From a virus (Duplodnaviria; Heunggongvirae; Uroviricota; Caudoviricetes): a stretch of DNA of 64,000 bases. The translations under genes were made by a program, and so were the position numbers. The notes below the pieces were generated by a model. The model was not told the origin of the DNA and made no database searches. It worked only from the letters and a program-made list of their open reading frames with translations. The stretch lies in the IMG/VR virus record IMGVR_UViG_3300020050_014748; one strand, given 5' to 3'. Shown here piece after piece: positions 9,644 to 38,398 of the stretch; positions within the stretch are counted from its first letter, which is position 1; each line of letters opens with the position of its first letter.

Positions 9644-9675
9644 CCATTATACTCCCCTATATTAAAAAAGTCAAG
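9644..9675 (-). promoter_or_regulatory. sigma70-like consensus promoter (phage promoter family copy)
   Basis: Minus strand reads CTTGACTTTTTTAATATAGGGGAGTATAATGG: -35 TTGACT, 17-nt spacer, -10 TATAAT. Confidence 0.65.
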
Positions 9676-13190: not shown

Positions 13191-13262
13191 CTAGCGGGCT
13201 AGGGGTCGGACCTAGAATCTATTGTTTCAAAGACAATCGTGTTACCATTACACTACCCACTA
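13191..13262 (-). tRNA. tRNA-Gln (UUG)
   Basis: Acceptor TAGTGGG/CCCGCTA, D-arm GTGT-AATGGTA-ACAC, anticodon stem ATTGT/ACAAT with loop CTTTGAA. The T-loop TCCGACC is atypical at position 55. Confidence 0.6.
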
Positions 13263-13675
13263 TTTTTTGATCTTTTAAAAGTTCTTATCCTGTGACAATT
13301 AGAACAAACAACTTCACATTTTTTAATCTCTTCTAAAATAATTTTTATGGAACATTTTATATTAACCGCATTAGACACTAGAAATTTTTTATCACGTATA
13401 TGATCAAAATCCATAACATAATAAGGATATATAATTCCACAATCAAAACATGGTTTATTTTTAGCTTCTTTTACTATTCTATGAATATACTCTGAACGTT
13501 TTTTATTATTTATTTTAAGTCTAGATTTTTCATTACCGTTCAAATAGTAAATATGTTTATAATAATCATTCCAACATTTTTTACACATAGAACCTAACCC
13601 GTCTTTTTTAGATTTATTTTTACTAAATTTATCAATTGATAAATTTAAATTACATTTATAACATTTCTTTTTCAT
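13253..13675 (-). CDS. HNH endonuclease with N-terminal zinc finger
   Basis: CYKCN...CKKC zinc finger, then MDFDHIRD...CEVVCSNCHRIR HNH motif. Confidence 0.6.
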   Translation of the reverse strand: MKKKCYKCNLNLSIDKFSKNKSKKDGLGSMCKKCWNDYYKHIYYLNGNEKSRLKINNKKRSEYIHRIVKEAKNKPCFDCGIIYPYYVMDFDHIRDKKFLVSNAVNIKCSIKIILEEIKKCEVVCSNCHRIRTFKRSKNSG

Positions 13676-13695
13676 AATTTTTATTACTCACCTAG

Positions 13696-13767
13696 TAGCG
13701 GGCCCCAGTAACGATCTGGATTTTTCAAAGTTATGAGCCTTGTGGGATCCCTGACCCCCCGCCCGCT
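13696..13767 (-). tRNA. tRNA with CAU anticodon (Met or Ile2), atypical T-loop
   Basis: Acceptor AGCGGGC/GCCCGCT, D-arm GGGG-TCAGGGA-TCCC, anticodon stem CAAGG/CTTTG with loop CTCATAA. The T-loop ATCGTTA is non-canonical. Confidence 0.45.
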
Positions 13768-13798
13768 ATTTAGGTAGATTTCTCTACCTAAAAACTAA

Positions 13799-13969
13799 CT
13801 ATTCACAAGAATCACACTTCACTGCATCCTGTGGATCTTCAGGCATAGAATCAATAGACTCTACAGCTTCTTGAACAGAATCAACAGTTTCAGTAACTTC
13901 TTCCATTGCAGGCTGTGCGTCTACAACTTCTACAGTTTCTTCAACTACAACATTTTCGTTATTTTCCAT
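13799..13969 (-). CDS. small highly acidic protein (56 aa, MENNENVVVEETVEVVDAQPAMEEV...)
   Basis: Manual translation of a minus-strand ORF between two tRNAs; about 40% Asp/Glu. Confidence 0.3.
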   Translation of the reverse strand: MENNENVVVEETVEVVDAQPAMEEVTETVDSVQEAVESIDSMPEDPQDAVKCDSCE

Positions 13970-13993
13970 ATTGTTTTAAAAATTAATTAATAA

Positions 13994-14067
13994 TGGTCAG
14001 AGATGAGAGAATCGAACTCCCGACTTACCCGTCCAAGGGGCATATGATACCATTTCAACAATCTCTG
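13994..14067 (-). tRNA. tRNA-Pro (UGG) with encoded CCA
   Basis: Acceptor CAGAGAT/ATCTCTG, anticodon stem TGCCC/GGGTA with loop CTTGGAC, T-arm GGGAG-TTCGATT-CTCTC, 3' ACCA. Confidence 0.7.
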
Positions 14068-15107
14068 TGGTGAACCATGCTTGCTAAGCCTGTGGTATAT
14101 GCCTTTAAGTATTTCTACCGGCAATCTTTTCTCTGGTACTAGCTTTGTGTACATTATTGGGTCAGTCAACCCGCGCCCCAATCTTCCTTCAGGTGGACGT
14201 GTAGGGAGTTACACCCTAATCTTTAATCGGTATCTTAACTTAATCTACATTGCCTGTCTGAATATACATCAGCGGTTTCCGCTTGGTTCACCAGCATATT
14301 TTATTTTTTTATCACTTCCGTATAATAAAAAAACTCCGAAAGCTATCTTGCAAATATTATGCGTACATCCACACTGCAAGAGTTATGTGGAGTACACACC
14401 GCTAGGCTGTTACGAGACCGAAGTCTGCGAAAGAGAAAAACGGAGAAACGATAGACTGGTTTGAGTTTATCAAGAGATCACTTTTAAGAGATATGATCAT
14501 ACTCTGCTATGCAAAATTAAAATAAACAACTAAATCGAAATTCGTCACGCCCAAGTGCAGGCCACGCGCTACCCATCACGGTTTCAAGTATACCCCTTGG
14601 TTTCACTCCAAAGTTACAACTATACCGTGCCTCACTACAGCCCCCATTTTTATCTGGGCTCTATAGAAGCCTTGTCCGCCTGCGAAACATTTAATTTTAA
14701 TGAACTGCGAGCCGACCTAGACTTGCACTAGGACGAACGGTTTTGGAGACCGAAATGCTGCTATTACATCATCGACTCAAGATATGTGAGTACGATATAT
14801 TGCTGAGTGCTATATAAACAAAACTTCAGTCAATCATAACGACAACACCACATATCCTCATTATTGCGACAATGGATAAGAGAAGCCTTAGCTGTTCTGT
14901 CCACTGCAATAATGAGAGTGTTACAGTAATGTAACACATGTGCGAGATAAGAGACTTGGACTCTTTTTTTCAGTTTGGAAAACTGACGTAATACCGTATA
15001 TACCAATCTCGCATAACTAATGGGACTTTAACAAAATAAATCATAATATGATTTAACCTGGTTTATTTCATTCACCAGAATCCCACTAATTCTCATCACT
15101 TACAAAT
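14068..15107 (-). ncRNA. candidate large structured non-coding RNA (about 1 kb, ORF-free, locally GC-enriched), transcribed from the consensus promoter at 15108-15139 toward the tRNA cluster
   Basis: No ORF of 60 aa or more on either strand across about 1 kb in an otherwise gene-dense genome. GC is higher than the flanks. Long-range helix TGGTGAACCA (14068-14077) pairs with TGGTTCACCA (14275-14284). Perfect hairpins include GTGTTACA-GTAA-TGTAACAC near 14925-14944. A family promoter lies immediately upstream on the minus strand and tRNA-Pro immediately downstream. Confidence 0.35.
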
Positions 15108-15139
15108 CCATTATACTCCCCTATACTAAAGAAGTCAAG
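15108..15139 (-). promoter_or_regulatory. promoter family copy with no protein gene downstream (drives the ORF-free region and tRNA cluster)
   Basis: Minus strand reads CTTGACTTCTTTAGTATAGGGGAGTATAATGG. Confidence 0.6.
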
Positions 15140-15160
15140 ACTATTATTCTACCATAAGTT

Positions 15161-15409
15161 TTACTTTCCCTTTCTTTTATTATTTGTCTGATCAGACTTC
15201 TCGTAAAACTCTATTATCTGATTAAGGAAAATAACGTGCTTTTTAATCTGTTCTAATTCTCTTTTGAATTGATATAAATACCACTCTTTACTTCCTTTTT
15301 CAGAATTCCATATCTTATTTAATAAACCCTTTATTTTATTACTCACCTTATCAAGACTCCATCTTTTAGGGGCGTAATGATTTTTTGTATTTTTCTTTAA
15401 ATTTACCAT
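15161..15409 (-). CDS. hypothetical protein
   Basis: ORF. Confidence 0.4.
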   Translation of the reverse strand: MVNLKKNTKNHYAPKRWSLDKVSNKIKGLLNKIWNSEKGSKEWYLYQFKRELEQIKKHVIFLNQIIEFYEKSDQTNNKRKGK

Positions 15410-17157: not shown

Positions 17158-18012
17158 CTATTTAATATTTATAAATGGAACAGAATTACCCATCATGTAC
17201 TGAGGTACATCACCTTTCCATTGTTTAATAGCTTGCAATTGAACATAATCAGCTCCACCCTGTGAGTTAATAGCCTGAGACTGAATTTTAATTGATTCTG
17301 CCTCACCTTGAGCTTGAACAATCTTCTGTTCCTTTTCGTACTTAGCTTGTTCTAGTTTATTTTTAGCACCTAGGGCACTTTGCTCAGCTGTAACTTTTAA
17401 TTCCACAGCCTCACTAAATGCTTTTGAGAATTCAAAATTGGTAACTGAGAAATCCTCAAGAATAGAGCTTTTTTCTGTGAGTTGCGTATCAAGTATCATG
17501 TTAACCTTGTCACTATATTCAGATCTCTTTGTAACAAGTTCCTCTGCTGTAAATTCTGCTGAGGTTGACTTAACAATTTGACGAACCATTGGTTCAATAA
17601 CATTTACTTCATAATTATCAACAGAACTATACTGTGAATATATTTGTATCGCCTTAGTTGGGTCAACGTGATATGTTACAACAACACCAATCTTTACATC
17701 TTGAAGATCTTTTGATGCACCAAATAATTCTGATGTATCCTTTGAATCTCCCTCTTTACCATTCTTATCGTAATTTATTGTTCTAGTCTTAACATCCATC
17801 TTGTAGACTTTTTCAATAACTGGAAACTTCAAATAAGGTCCTTGATTAATTATCCCAACTACTTTTCCGAGCCGTGTTTTAACTCCAACAGATCCTGCTT
17901 TTATAATCCCGAAACTGCTAAATACGAGAACAGTTAGAACCAAACCAATAACTATATGCTTAATAACCTTACCTACATTCAACTCACCATTTTCTTTTGT
18001 ATACATTTTCAT
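17158..18012 (-). CDS. SPFH/Band-7 (prohibitin/HflKC-like) membrane protein
   Basis: N-terminal TM, then an SPFH core and a C-terminal coiled coil (AEQSALGAKNKLEQAKYEKEQKIVQAQGEAE). Confidence 0.7.
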   Translation of the reverse strand: MKMYTKENGELNVGKVIKHIVIGLVLTVLVFSSFGIIKAGSVGVKTRLGKVVGIINQGPYLKFPVIEKVYKMDVKTRTINYDKNGKEGDSKDTSELFGASKDLQDVKIGVVVTYHVDPTKAIQIYSQYSSVDNYEVNVIEPMVRQIVKSTSAEFTAEELVTKRSEYSDKVNMILDTQLTEKSSILEDFSVTNFEFSKAFSEAVELKVTAEQSALGAKNKLEQAKYEKEQKIVQAQGEAESIKIQSQAINSQGGADYVQLQAIKQWKGDVPQYMMGNSVPFINIK

Positions 18013-18056: not shown

Positions 18057-18088
18057 CCATTATACTCCCCTATATTAAAGAAGTCAAG
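18057..18088 (-). promoter_or_regulatory. promoter family copy
   Basis: Minus strand reads CTTGACTTCTTTAATATAGGGGAGTATAATGG; overlaps the 3' end of the helicase gene. Confidence 0.65.
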
Positions 18089-20197: not shown

Positions 20198-20226
20198 TTG
20201 ACTTCTTTAATATAGGGGAGTATAAT
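20198..20226 (+). promoter_or_regulatory. promoter family copy (TTGACTTCTTTAATATAGGGGAGTATAAT)
   Basis: Exact TTGACT-N17-TATAAT. Confidence 0.7.
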
Positions 20227-20255
20227 GTAATTACAAGTTTAAATCTTAAAAGATT

Positions 20256-24157: not shown

Positions 24158-24186
24158 TTGACTTCTTTAATATAGGGGAGTATAAT
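24158..24186 (+). promoter_or_regulatory. promoter family copy placed for a leaderless mRNA
   Basis: Identical 29-mer TTGACTTCTTTAATATAGGGGAGTATAAT; the ATG at 24193 lies 7 nt after the -10. Confidence 0.7.
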
Positions 24187-24192
24187 GGAATT

Positions 24193-27678: not shown

Positions 27679-27707
27679 TTGACTTCTTTAGTATGGGGGA
27701 GTATAAT
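27679..27707 (+). promoter_or_regulatory. promoter family copy placed for a leaderless mRNA
   Basis: TTGACTTCTTTAGTATGGGGGAGTATAAT; the ATG at 27714 lies 7 nt after the -10. Confidence 0.65.
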
Positions 27708-27713
27708 GTAAAT

Positions 27714-36766: not shown

Positions 36767-38398
36767 ATGGCTATAAATAAAGAAATTACATTTGGGGAAG
36801 GTGCATTAACTCGAATACAAAAAGGTATAAATACAGTAGCTGAACTAGCTGGTGTAACACTCGGCCCTCGTGGTAGAAATATCATTGTTGATAGAGGTAT
36901 TATGCCACCAAGTATCAGTAATGATGGCCTTGATGGCATACGAACAGTTATACTAAAGGATCGTCTTCAGAATATGGGAGCAGACATTGTTAGAGATGTT
37001 GCAATTAAAACTAACGATAAAGCAAGAGGAGCAAGAACAGCTTCTATTGTGTTAACACAATCAATTTTTAATGAAGGTTTTAGCCAGATAAAAAAGGGTG
37101 TTAATGTTATTGCAATTAAAAAGGGTATTGAAAAGGGTGCTGCTTATGTAATTGAAGAACTAAAGAAAAGAGCTACTAAGATTGAAACAAATGATCAATT
37201 GAAAGCAGTTGCTACTATATCATCTGAATCAGAAGAATGTGGTGCTATTGTAGCTGAAGCATTTGATAAGGTGGGTAAAGATGGAATCGTCAAAGCAGAG
37301 GAGTCTACTTTGAGTAGTGGTATTACTCTTGAAATTGTTGATGGAATGAAAATAGAGAGAGGTTGGATTAACCCGTGGATGGTCAACAATCCAAATAAGA
37401 TGGAGGCAGAATACGATAATGTTGCAGTTATGATTGTTGATAAAAAGATGATCCAAATCAAAGACTTTCTTCCTATTCAAGAAAAAATGGCAACATCTGG
37501 TATTGGAGAACTTCTTATTATAGCAGAAGATGTTGATGGTGAGGCGCTTGAGACACTCGTGGGTAATAATATGAGAGGAGGATTTCGTGTTGTTGCAATT
37601 AAATCTCCAGGGTTTGGTGTTGAAAAGAAAGAGATACTTAAGGATATTGAAATATTGACTGGTGCAAAGATAATCTCAGATGAAACAGGGAACCCAATGA
37701 AGACAGCGGAACTTGATAGTGTTGGTTTTGCAAAGAAGATTGTTGTATCTAGAAATGAAACAGTAATCATTGGTAATCCAAATACAAAAGAACTTGTTAA
37801 TAATAGAATAGAAGAACTTAAAACTCAACTTTCAGAACTTAAATCAAACATTGATATTAAGAATATGGAGTCAAGAATAGGAAAACTCTCTGGAGGAGCT
37901 GGTATAATAAAGATAGGAGCATTAACAGAAGCCGGAATGAAATATCTTAAAATGAAGATTGATGACTCTATTGATGAGGCAAGAAATTCACTTCAGGAAG
38001 GATTCGTAAAAGGTGGAGGCTCTGAGTTGTTTAGTATTGCAGACAGTATGTCACTTGAAAGTAAGGAAATGACAGCAGAAGAAAAAATTGGTTTCAATAT
38101 TGTCATGGAATCAATTAAGATGCCACTCAAGAAAATCATGATAAATGCTGGTGAGAACGATATTGAAGCAATGGAAAAAGAACTCTCTTTGAGACTGAAA
38201 GAACATAAAGATTCTGGTTATGATGCAATATCTGGTAAGATTGTTGATGATATGATAGAAGCTGGTATAATAGATTCTATTAAGGTTATTATAATCGCAT
38301 TACAGAATGCAGCAGAAGCAGCGGCAACTGCACTCACAATAGGAGCATCGGTCTCAGATGAAATAAAAGATAAAGAAGAAGACAAGAATAATTATTAA
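36767..38398 (+). CDS. GroEL/Cpn60-like chaperonin (divergent)
   Basis: VTLGPRGRNII, NMGA and apical/equatorial blocks are conserved; lacks the C-terminal GGM repeats. Confidence 0.8.
   Translation: MAINKEITFGEGALTRIQKGINTVAELAGVTLGPRGRNIIVDRGIMPPSISNDGLDGIRTVILKDRLQNMGADIVRDVAIKTNDKARGARTASIVLTQSIFNEGFSQIKKGVNVIAIKKGIEKGAAYVIEELKKRATKIETNDQLKAVATISSESEECGAIVAEAFDKVGKDGIVKAEESTLSSGITLEIVDGMKIERGWINPWMVNNPNKMEAEYDNVAVMIVDKKMIQIKDFLPIQEKMATSGIGELLIIAEDVDGEALETLVGNNMRGGFRVVAIKSPGFGVEKKEILKDIEILTGAKIISDETGNPMKTAELDSVGFAKKIVVSRNETVIIGNPNTKELVNNRIEELKTQLSELKSNIDIKNMESRIGKLSGGAGIIKIGALTEAGMKYLKMKIDDSIDEARNSLQEGFVKGGGSELFSIADSMSLESKEMTAEEKIGFNIVMESIKMPLKKIMINAGENDIEAMEKELSLRLKEHKDSGYDAISGKIVDDMIEAGIIDSIKVIIIALQNAAEAAATALTIGASVSDEIKDKEEDKNNY

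Follow-up and report, generated by a model that had tools for sequence, protein, structure and literature searches.

The minus strand of positions 14068-15139 very probably forms the promoter-proximal part of a phage translation-RNA operon, in which tRNA genes and a tmRNA gene are arranged among many modules. All positions are those of the window, the whole 64,000-nucleotide stretch of phage DNA that was analysed. The tmRNA is a divergent member of a kind already known in phages, and the region does not represent a new class of large RNA; its only possibly new parts are the leader and the spacer between the first two tRNA genes (spacer B). A preliminary description of this DNA had recognised a promoter-driven, structured and non-protein-coding RNA block adjoining the tRNA island, which our analysis upholds. 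The same description had proposed a single RNA of about 1 kb similar to GOLLD or ROOL; this had to be abandoned, as no match to GOLLD, ROOL or HEARO was obtained and the block consists of modular tRNAs plus a tmRNA.

Organization of the region and its relatives

At the head of the region (Table 1) there is, as had been claimed, a phage promoter on the minus strand, of the sigma-70 type (TTGACT-17-TATAAT at 15138..15110). It matches 11 of the 12 consensus positions, is 89% identical to the copy in the relative L075 and belongs to a family of six copies of a 31-nt element in the window, with two mismatches at most, when none would be expected by chance. The G+C enrichment reported for the region was also confirmed (0.37-0.47 vs. 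approximately 0.20-0.33 in the flanks), and ARAGORN located tRNA-Pro directly downstream, as had been described. The interval itself is not free of genes, since ARAGORN, run with its defaults, detects tRNA-Gly(UCC) inside it. No strong internal terminator was found. We infer that transcription of the operon starts near position 15103 of the minus strand, from where the transcript of this phage-family promoter would run through the leader, tRNA-Gly, spacer B, tRNA-Trp, spacer C, the tmRNA, spacer D and tRNA-Pro, and then into the remaining tRNA island. The mature RNAs would be freed from this precursor by the RNase P, 3'-end trimming enzymes and CCA-adding enzyme of the host.

Table 1. Features located in and around positions 14068-15139 of the window
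Feature	Position	Strand	Details
Sigma-70-type phage promoter	15108-15138	-	-35 TTGACT at 15138-15133, 17-nt spacer, -10 TATAAT at 15115-15110
Leader	15013-15109	-	Conserved, structured; three-way-junction core at 15015-15091
tRNA-Gly(UCC)	14940-15012	-	ARAGORN default and Rfam tRNA model
Spacer B	14779-14939	-	Three conserved hairpins
Spacer B, hairpin B1	14918-14937	-	GTGTTACA-GTAA-TGTAACAC
Spacer B, hairpin B2	14857-14916	-	Predicted fold
Spacer B, hairpin B3	14781-14856	-	Predicted fold
tRNA-Trp(CCA)	14707-14778	-	Rfam tRNA model; ARAGORN relaxed scoring
Spacer C	14553-14706	-	154 nt; GC-rich; lineage-specific
One-piece tmRNA (ssrA)	14191-14552	-	362 nt; full-length RF00023 match
tmRNA acceptor stem	14552-14546 with 14201-14195	-	GGGCGUG / CACGUCC, includes G3·U70
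tmRNA PK1	14505-14476	-	Two stems, H-type order
tmRNA tag frame	14464-14402	-	20 codons and UAG stop
tmRNA PK2	14398-14347	-	Two stems, H-type order
tmRNA PK3	14343-14299	-	Two stems, H-type order
tmRNA T arm	14218-14202	-	T-loop UGUAACU
tmRNA 3' end	14194-14191	-	ACCU
Spacer D	14068-14190	-	123 nt; variable; without significant structure
tRNA-Pro(UGG)	13994-14067	-	ARAGORN and Rfam tRNA model (51.3 bits); next operon gene, just outside 14068-15139
TTG-started ORF, 127 aa	14081-14464	+	Antisense to tmRNA; no Pfam match
TTG-started ORF, 64 aa	13987-14181	-	No Pfam match

The tRNA-Gly(UCC) gene, whose T-loop is UCCAAGU, obtained 58.3 bits with the Rfam tRNA model (RF00005) and is syntenic in the relatives L075 and L079. 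The tRNA-Trp(CCA) gene is divergent, with a UGCAAGU T-loop and a D-loop without GG, although its cloverleaf can be drawn. It reached 45.3 bits (RF00005, cut-off 29), only when a small region was scanned, and was seen by ARAGORN only under relaxed scoring; L075 has a canonical tRNA-Trp at the syntenic position. In L075 the tRNA-Gly, tRNA-Trp and tmRNA genes keep the order that they have in the window. ORFs encoding HNH endonucleases are found between modules of the relatives, specifically between the leader and tRNA-Gly in L079 and between tRNA-Trp and the tmRNA in L075, and because of these insertions the modules must be regarded as separable, independent units. For spacers C and D, no counterpart was detected in L075.

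Homologues of the tmRNA were searched with an nhmmer profile. L079 was found through a metagenome scan with a back-translated pattern of the tag, which gave this one true relative and four chance matches, while a pattern of the tag C-terminus gave only chance matches in a genome collection and revealed no host or prophage copy. In IMG/VR, four exact or degenerate DNA patterns, representing the 3' end and the tag region of the tmRNA as well as the leader and spacer B, had zero matches, and a 15-mer of the T arm had 39 chance matches, none of them similar to a tmRNA. Searching GenBank phage DNA with the region, and with 10 kb around it, gave no match either. Relatives recovered from IMG/VR through the neighbouring HAD-like protein and the helicase (L001-L027) have no similar island; L001-L008 were scanned, and isolated tRNAs appeared in L005 and L008. 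In contigs L028-L035, whose flanking proteins are identical, identity is 98.7-100%, which is too high for covariation analysis. Through homologues of the 95-aa island protein we reached unrelated tRNA islands that lack this tmRNA, and through those of the Band_7 protein a sister lineage with large tRNA islands, in which neither the tmRNA nor spacer B nor the leader is present. A distant related phage, L085, carries a TROVE gene.

Leader and spacers

In the core of the leader, a stem of 13 bp closes off two hairpins. The minimum free energy (MFE) z-score of the leader is -3.7, and 2 of the 26 predicted pairs are compensatory. The leader is 88% identical to that of L075, compared with approximately 70% for the adjoining tRNAs, and its core is almost invariant. 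Spacer B folds with an MFE of -55 kcal/mol (z-score -5.8), and 95% of the cells at its 61 predicted pairs are paired in the window, L079 and L075. Two-sided changes that keep pairing occur at 16 of these pairs, whereas slid controls gave 1-2 and shuffles 5.7±2.0, a result to be read bearing in mind that the same sequences served both to predict the structure and to test it and that these represent about two independent lineages. The apical motifs of spacer B are conserved in sequence. Hairpin B1 had already been noticed and is real, and L075 retains it with a single compensatory change, but it lies at 14918-14937 and not at 14925-14944.

Neither the leader nor spacer B matched any Rfam family in the lax-filter scan (E≤10), and the leader matched no riboswitch family. 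Among the sequences collected, a model of spacer B (R1) had matches only in this lineage and that of the leader (R2) only marginal matches elsewhere. The suggestion that the region may be a new class is therefore sustained in part: these two elements are conserved, structured and without an Rfam match. A Y RNA (YrlA)/Ro60 reading was rejected, as there is no TROVE homologue in the window and no Rfam match.

Spacer C has a possible cloverleaf-like fold with an MFE z-score of only -1.5; all seven L079 substitutions (7/7) fit this fold and one pair is compensatory. No significant similarity to it was detected anywhere in L075, which has an HNH_3 ORF in its place. Spacer D, with a z-score of +0.2, carries a 17-nt deletion in L079. 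Homology of spacers C and D with the 278-nt spacer that follows the tmRNA in L075 was considered and discarded, the similarity not being significant.

The hairpins of the leader and spacer B are most likely 'punctuation' for the processing or stability of the precursor. Alternatively, both elements may accumulate as small stable RNAs in the manner of RNAC and RNAD of bacteriophage T4, which are small structured RNAs of unknown role among the phage tRNA genes (PMC3014915, PMC9697503). The leader and spacer B are analogous in their conserved structure and in their place within a tRNA operon. The comparison is only with how the T4 RNAs may work, as no GenBank phage, T4 being assumed to be among them, resembles the region in sequence. 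To our knowledge, the tRNA cluster of T4 has no tmRNA.

It is also possible, if unlikely, that the leader, spacer B or both are new trans-acting small RNAs or tRNA-mimicking decoys and not mere processing signals. Such a role would agree with the two-sided changes and conserved apical motifs of spacer B, with a leader core nearly invariant beside tRNAs of approximately 70% identity, with the lack of Rfam matches and with the T4 precedent. However, the elements are confined to a narrow lineage, the covariation has the limits given above, and hairpins between tRNAs would be just as expected if they served RNase III, RNase E or RNase P as processing sites or shielded the RNA from exonucleases. 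Punctuation of the precursor is the preferred reading.

The tmRNA gene and its tag

The tmRNA was detected in a lax-filter scan of positions 13600-15300, where it matched model positions 1-374 of RF00023 with 46.3 bits (E = 9.6e-17). The gathering score of this family is 47 bits, 0.7 bit higher, and the gene was missing both from the Rfam scan at the gathering threshold and from the Infernal E-value scan of the whole window, in which it was lost to the filters. The syntenic orthologues of L079 (54.4 bits) and L075 (82.4 bits) are above the cut-off. ARAGORN, under default or relaxed scoring, gave no tmRNA in the window and reported none in L075 or L079, which is a limit of the tool and not a biological criterion. 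Among the classes excluded by eye in the preliminary description was tmRNA, wrongly; for RNase P and introns, the scan gave no match at E≤10.

Pairs were counted in a four-sequence alignment (A3), and a separate three-sequence alignment was also made. At the 49 pairs of the core, including those of three pseudoknots, 99% of the cells are paired, and PK1, PK2 and PK3 are each 96-100% paired. Both sides change with pairing kept at 11 pairs, whereas slid controls gave 0-1 and shuffles 2.8±1.4; these counts come from about three independent lineages and most of the signal from L075. The compensatory pairs are located in the acceptor stem (2 pairs), the T arm (3 pairs), helix 2, PK1 and PK3, and none in PK2; helix 2a, the segment of helix 2 that was tested (8 pairs), contains three of them. 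No PK4 could be recognised, its region being occupied by small hairpins that vary with the lineage. The tRNA-like domain of the tmRNA has a T arm and a 7-bp acceptor stem with an invariant G3·U70 (4/4 sequences). The discriminator A opens a 3' end that reads ACCU in the window gene, ACCA in that of L079 and ACAA in that of L075. Because the window gene ends in ACCU, its CCA is not gene-encoded. The T-loop of the window tmRNA is atypical, without the usual U55-C56.

The tag frame follows the consensus (S/A/V)(N/K)QSIVSPFFSFADFGLV(T/L)A. It reads SNQSIVSPFFSFADFGLVTA in the window, AKQ...VTA in L034, VKQ...VTA in L079 and AKQSIVSPFFSFADFGLVLA (AKQ...VLA) in L075, each followed by a stop, so that the peptide is hydrophobic and its C-terminus is LVTA or LVLA; tmRNA tags commonly end in ...LAA. 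Between the window and L075 the frame presents four synonymous changes, the stop passes from UAG to UAA, and codons 1, 2 and 19 specify different amino acids. The window has UCA as its resume codon, atypical where GCN is usual, and L034 and L075 have GCA; GUA also occurs, and this first codon varies between UCA, GCA and GUA even among near-identical contigs. The upstream U(-5)A(-4) is kept in all the alleles, as read from the sequences. Overall, the tmRNA is 82% identical to that of L075, compared with approximately 70-75% for the adjoining tRNAs and protein genes.

Several of these features, namely a score of 46.3 bits against 47, the ARAGORN miss, the non-canonical T-loop, the odd and variable resume codon and the placement of 11 of the 15 L034 substitutions inside the tmRNA, could belong to a gene of host origin that no longer functions and is decaying. 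We consider this improbable, given that 11 compensatory pairs and 99% pairing are maintained across lineages that are approximately 80% identical, that G3·U70 and the U(-5)A(-4) context do not vary, that the tag frame is open and shows synonymous and stop-to-stop changes, and that the tmRNA is better conserved than its neighbours.

A gene for SmpB was not found in the window by tblastn with an approximate E. coli SmpB sequence as query (best E 0.61), so the tmRNA would depend on the host for its function. We infer transcription, processing, charging and tagging from the sequence. The host AlaRS would charge the tmRNA through G3·U70, and the charged molecule, together with host SmpB and EF-Tu, would enter stalled ribosomes and append (A)SNQSIVSPFFSFADFGLVTA. 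Such tagging would release ribosomes during the infection and mark truncated proteins.

Other readings and comparison with known systems

GOLLD and ROOL RNAs occur frequently in phages, next to tRNA genes. The region resembles them and HEARO in its phage context, its tRNA neighbourhood and its non-coding, GC-enriched sequence, and one large ornate RNA, of that kind or of a new class and with the tRNA- and tmRNA-like parts as domains, would be in accordance with a single promoter, the lack of a strong internal terminator and parts that fold far better than shuffles. That reading is very improbable. The Infernal scan proposed earlier, run with lax filters and covering the GOLLD, ROOL, HEARO, RNase P, tmRNA and intron models, returned nothing beyond chance except tRNA and tmRNA; over 13600-15300 on both strands (Rfam 15, E≤10), the other matches were chance-level ones to DGCR5 (E 6.6) and IS009 (E 9.7). 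Unlike a single large RNA, the interval resolves into recognisable tRNAs and a full-length tmRNA, is interrupted by HNH ORFs between modules in the relatives and includes two spacers that are missing or replaced in L075. The only long-range helix that had been proposed, of 10 bp, has its second arm at 14284-14293 and not at 14275-14284, and it is not significant, since a perfect inverted repeat of at least 10 bp appeared in 44% of dinucleotide shuffles of the region. One of its arms is inside the tmRNA and the partner arm (14068-14077, in spacer D) is absent in L075; no conserved long-range pairing between modules was found.

The stretch had also been described as having no ORF of at least 60 aa, which is true for ATG-started ORFs, none of which crosses it, and not for TTG-started ones, as two overlap it. 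An overlooked protein-coding gene across the region, whether with an alternative start, a different genetic code or an intron, has a negligible probability: these two ORFs exist and some metagenome gene callers predict a gene on the strand opposite the tmRNA in L031 and L034, but neither ORF has a Pfam match, other gene calls on identical DNA omit the antisense gene, and RNA genes with an RNA-type substitution pattern explain the region fully. The antisense 127-aa ORF was consequently rejected as a gene, its frame being also broken in L075, where the longest stop-free run antisense to the tmRNA is 66 codons.

Reading the region as a translation-RNA operon, its tmRNA can be compared with those of other phages. 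A tmRNA is present in 402 of 18,146 phage genomes (approximately 2.3%; PMC9004378), huge phages encode tmRNA and sometimes SmpB (PMC7162821), and subcluster C1 mycobacteriophages are annotated with 32 tRNAs and one tmRNA (PMC13014143). The gene described here shares with phage one-piece tmRNAs its place in a phage tRNA cluster, the G3·U70 of the tRNA-like domain, the pseudoknots and the tag frame. It differs in belonging to a genome of only about 70-80 kb without a match in GenBank phage DNA, in the UGUAACU T-loop, in a resume codon that is UCA, GCA or GUA depending on the contig, in the hydrophobic tag ending LVTA or LVLA and in being missed by ARAGORN and by the Rfam cut-off and default filters. 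The marine phage Melnitz has a two-piece tmRNA preceded by a glutamine riboswitch and an early sigma-70-type promoter (PMC9004378). Both phages have the tmRNA just downstream of a sigma-70-type promoter with a structured RNA element. However, the tmRNA here is one-piece and not permuted, and the leader precedes tRNA-Gly instead of lying within the tmRNA gene, and matches no riboswitch family at E≤10.

An uncultivated phage of medium size (approximately 70-80 kb, estimated from contigs) thus carries its own ribosome-rescue RNA. Since ARAGORN and the Rfam cut-off and default filters miss this tmRNA, surveys of phage tmRNAs may undercount them, and counts based only on ARAGORN, such as the 2.3% mentioned above, may be underestimates. 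More doubtful is a broader proposal in which the leader and spacer B would be new lineage-specific small RNAs acting in trans, for example by regulating host translation or by mimicking tRNA or tmRNA to divert the RNA-targeting defences of the host, and the tmRNA tag would be tailored to the phage. If this were true, the tag, with its variable first codon and its LVTA or LVLA end, might send rescued proteins to a fate unlike that of host tagging. Finally, RNAC and RNAD of T4 have gone without an explanation for decades, and this compact, promoter-defined operon, in which tRNAs, a tmRNA and conserved non-tRNA hairpins would be co-transcribed, makes a tractable case for the role of the small RNAs of phage tRNA regions.

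Gene content of the promoter-driven stretch

The 1.07 kb at 14068-15139, which the preliminary description had proposed as a single ORF-free RNA candidate, is a series of modules, since Rfam and ARAGORN scans resolve tRNAs and a tmRNA within it. ARAGORN found tRNA-Gly(UCC) with default settings and tRNA-Trp(CCA) with relaxed scoring. The Rfam scan of the window at the gathering threshold returned seven tRNAs only, and a lax-filter scan of 13600-15300 (E<=10) added a tRNA at 14708-14778(-) (45.3 bits) and a full-length match to the tmRNA model RF00023 (46.3 bits, gathering score 47; E 9.6e-17), a class previously excluded on visual inspection. GOLLD, ROOL, HEARO, RNase P and intron models gave no match in this lax-filter scan. 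ARAGORN did not report the tmRNA, relaxed scoring included, and both tmRNA and tRNA-Trp were lost to the Infernal speed filters in a whole-window E-value scan. Another divergent tRNA of the island, tRNA-Met(CAT), was called by ARAGORN, and the Rfam tRNA model was silent on it at the gathering score, at E<=0.01 (window) and at E<=10 (1.7-kb scan). Between tRNA-Pro and tRNA-Met lies a very acidic 56-aa ORF ending in CDSCE, with no PHROG match and with counterparts in the relatives L075 (50 aa, ending in CESCQ) and L079.

The minus-strand promoter was confirmed as a near-consensus sigma-70-type element (TTGACT-17 nt-TATAAT). It belongs to a 31-nt family (TTGACTTCTTTARTATAGGGGAGTATAATGG) present in six copies in the window at <=2 mismatches (0 expected by chance); GGGGAG is conserved between its -35 and -10 elements, and L075 also has this family. 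The GC enrichment likewise held (0.37-0.47 over 14000-14900 vs about 0.20-0.33 in both flanks). The stretch is free of ATG-started ORFs of at least 60 aa, as had been claimed, but two TTG-started ORFs without Pfam matches overlap it; the 127-aa one is not conserved in L075, because stop-free runs on the strand opposite the tmRNA reach at most 66 codons there. Two proposed pairings needed small corrections of position: the 10-bp long-range helix has its second arm at 14284-14293, and the 8-bp hairpin lies at 14918-14937. As structural evidence the helix is at chance level, perfect inverted repeats of at least 10 bp appearing in 44% of dinucleotide-shuffled versions of the region, and L075 lacks its partner arm. 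Altogether, the earlier observation was partly confirmed and its interpretation partly supported.

Features of the window (operon in order from the promoter) and of related contigs
Feature	Contig	Coordinates	Strand	Remark
Promoter	window	15138..15110	-	
Leader	window	15013-15109	-	97 nt
tRNA-Gly(UCC)	window	14940-15012	-	T-loop UCCAAGU
Spacer B	window	14779-14939	-	161 nt
tRNA-Trp(CCA)	window	14707-14778	-	T-loop UGCAAGU
Spacer C	window		-	154 nt
tmRNA	window	14191-14552	-	362 nt
tmRNA T-loop UGUAACU	window	14202-14218		
First tag codon	window	14462-14464		
Spacer D	window		-	123 nt
tRNA-Pro	window		-	
Acidic ORF	window	13799-13969	-	56 aa
tRNA-Met(CAT)	window	13695-13767	-	
HNH-family ORF	window	13253-13675	-	
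TTG-started ORF	window	14081-14464	+	127 aa
TTG-started ORF	window	13987-14181	-	64 aa
Promoter family	window	9644-9674, 15108-15138, 18057-18087	-	
Promoter family	window	20198-20228, 24158-24188, 27679-27709	+	
Band_7/prohibitin-family protein	window	17158-18012	-	
GroEL-type chaperonin	window	36767-38398	+	
HNH_3 endonuclease ORF	L075	4760-5125		
tmRNA	L075	5139-5498		82.4 bits
Spacer	L075	5499-5776		278 nt
tRNA-Pro-like sequence	L075	5777-5850		
HNH-family ORF	L079	1786-2172		
RNase P RNA match	L086	12763-13128	+	
RNase P RNA match	L089	16260-16591 + 17119-17151		split
RNase P RNA match	L090	10626-10957 + 11485-11517		split
RNase P RNA match	L092	8807-9138		
TROVE/Ro60 protein	L085	12925-14313		

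Structure, tag and conservation of the tmRNA

No similarity to GenBank phages was found. Contigs that share one and the same 82-aa upstream protein (L028-L035) show 98.7-100% identity across the region, L034 having 15 substitutions, 11 of them inside the tmRNA. L075, reached via a 75%-identical homologue of this protein (P0003), is syntenic and clearly diverged. L079, recovered by a metagenome scan with the back-translated tag pattern, has about 95% identity and a tmRNA score of 54.4 bits.

In a four-sequence alignment covering the acceptor stem, an 8-pair helix 2 segment, the T arm and two stems each of pseudoknots PK1, PK2 and PK3, the 49 core pairs of the tmRNA are standard in 99% of cells. 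Two-sided changes with pairing kept occur at 11 pairs, vs 0-1 after shifting the partners by 1-3 columns and 2.8±1.4 after shuffling. The alanine identity pair G3·U70 is the same in all four sequences; PK4 was not established. The encoded tags, each followed by a stop, are SNQSIVSPFFSFADFGLVTA (window), AKQSIVSPFFSFADFGLVTA (L034), VKQSIVSPFFSFADFGLVTA (L079) and AKQSIVSPFFSFADFGLVLA (L075). The 3' half of the frame differs between window and L075 by four synonymous changes (GCA/GCU, UUC/UUU, CUC/CUA, GUA/GUG), one Thr-to-Leu and a UAG-to-UAA stop change; the synonymous and stop-to-stop pattern is the signature of a translated frame. Identity between the two is 82% in the tmRNA vs 68-74% in the neighbouring tRNAs and 70-75% in flanking protein genes. 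Judged from these comparisons, the tmRNA is real and under selection.

Several of its traits are atypical. The resume codon of the window allele is UCA, with U(-5)A(-4) at the same distance in all alleles, and the tag ends in LVTA or LVLA; the common tmRNA tag ending is ...LAA. The first tag codon varies among otherwise near-identical contigs, being UCA (Ser) in the window and L028-L033, GCA (Ala) in L034 and L075 and GUA (Val) in L079, and the allele changes are clustered within 20 nt, just upstream of the tag and at its start. The T-loop of the tmRNA lacks U55-C56, and the near-universal U55 is also missing from tRNA-Trp, which in addition lacks the D-loop GG, and from tRNA-Gly. The elbow of these three RNAs may be altered, and the unusual loops account for their low detector scores; loops are canonical in the tRNA-Gly alleles of L075 and L079 and in the L075 tmRNA. 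A further sequence, GCGGGAGGGGAGTAACCTTTAGTAAAGGGTGTAACTCCCTTCCCCCGCACCA, occurs without any difference in ten IMG/VR contigs, represented by eleven retrieved stretches (L039, L043, L047, L051, L053, L055, L058, L060, L062, L063, L067; L039 = L060). It resembles a T arm, again with the unusual GUGUAAC loop, and after it the 3' strand of an acceptor stem and CCA; this points to the 3' half of a tRNA or tRNA-like RNA.

Leader, spacers and apparent turnover of the island

Spacer B folds into three hairpins (MFE z-score -5.8) whose 61 pairs are standard in 95% of cells among window, L079 and L075. Two-sided changes affect 16 pairs (six in the basal stem of hairpin B3) vs 1-2 in controls with shifted partners and 5.7±2.0 after shuffling, counts that come from about two independent lineages only and from a structure predicted with the same sequences. 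The leader forms a three-way junction (z-score -3.7) and is 88% identical to that of L075, with an almost invariant core. Neither element had an Rfam match (lax-filter scan of 13600-15300, E<=10), and their covariance models recovered only their own source sequences plus two marginal leader-model hits (E 0.035 and 0.098). For spacer C, a z-score of -1.5 and seven of seven L079 substitutions fitting a cloverleaf-like fold weakly suggest structure; spacer D is unstructured (z +0.2) and variable.

The L075 island runs from the promoter through leader, tRNA-Gly(UCC), spacer B, tRNA-Trp(CCA) and HNH_3 ORF to the tmRNA, the HNH ORF occupying the position of spacer C. L079 has an insertion directly after the leader that consists of an HNH ORF and a different tRNA-Gly allele. 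Such mobile-gene insertions separate the modules, which argues against a single RNA. HNH-family ORFs stand at three different island sites in window, L079 and L075; that of L079 had no database match and was assigned by analogy. The L079 insertion came with replacement of the tRNA-Gly allele, of whose old 5' end 8 nt remain. Island turnover looks driven by homing endonucleases. The L075 sequence at the tRNA-Pro position is a homologue whose anticodon loop has UGG and whose T arm is very divergent, and it is called by neither ARAGORN nor Rfam; the GC-rich, ORF-poor spacer before it (z -2.2) is unrelated to those of the window.

The Band_7 protein of the window has >2,200 metagenome homologues at E<=1e-30, and the long contigs inspected resemble phages; the label of one of them as a Nanoarchaeota MAG probably reflects faulty binning. 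In a sister lineage (Band_7 protein 66% identical), a full-length class A RNase P RNA match lies inside an island of at least 25 tRNAs. The bacterial class A match in L086 (76.8 bits, cut-off 100; E 2.2e-22) has CR-I-like and CR-V-like motifs. An insertion of about 530 nt carrying a 162-aa ORF, possibly an intron or a homing-endonuclease insertion, interrupts the gene in L089 and L090 some 33 nt short of the 3' end. A limited literature search found no publication on phage-encoded RNase P RNA. A related phage contig, L085, whose Band_7 protein is 68% identical, has a gene for a TROVE/Ro60 protein beside RecT/YqaJ genes; phage Ro60 genes are usually accompanied by Y RNAs (PMC4201824).

Proposed function and relation to other phage RNAs

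The gene content, RNA architectures and conservation are shown by the sequence analysis, and a composite operon carrying a tmRNA very probably explains the stretch. A single primary transcript would start near 15103 and be processed by RNase P and 3'-end trimming enzymes of the host; the tmRNA gene ends in ACCU with no encoded CCA, which would be added later. A search of the window with an E. coli SmpB query detected no such gene, and the factors are therefore presumed to come from the host: host AlaRS would charge the tmRNA, which with host SmpB and EF-Tu would free stalled ribosomes during infection and tag nascent chains.

The leader and spacer-B hairpins are most likely processing or stability elements of this precursor. 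A less likely alternative is that they persist as small RNAs and have a function of their own, as may T4 RNAC and RNAD, small RNAs of the tRNA region whose roles are unknown (PMC3014915; PMC9697503). A GOLLD/ROOL-like RNA was rejected: neither family matched in the lax-filter scan of 13600-15300, and the modules are separable by insertions.

Phage tmRNAs are already established: one survey found them in 402 of 18,146 phage genomes, and in Melnitz-like marine phages a two-piece tmRNA lies beside an early promoter and a glutamine riboswitch (PMC9004378); tmRNA and SmpB also occur in huge phages (PMC7162821). The one described here is a new divergent tmRNA in a mid-sized phage, notable mainly in that standard detection misses it and that conserved hairpins accompany it.
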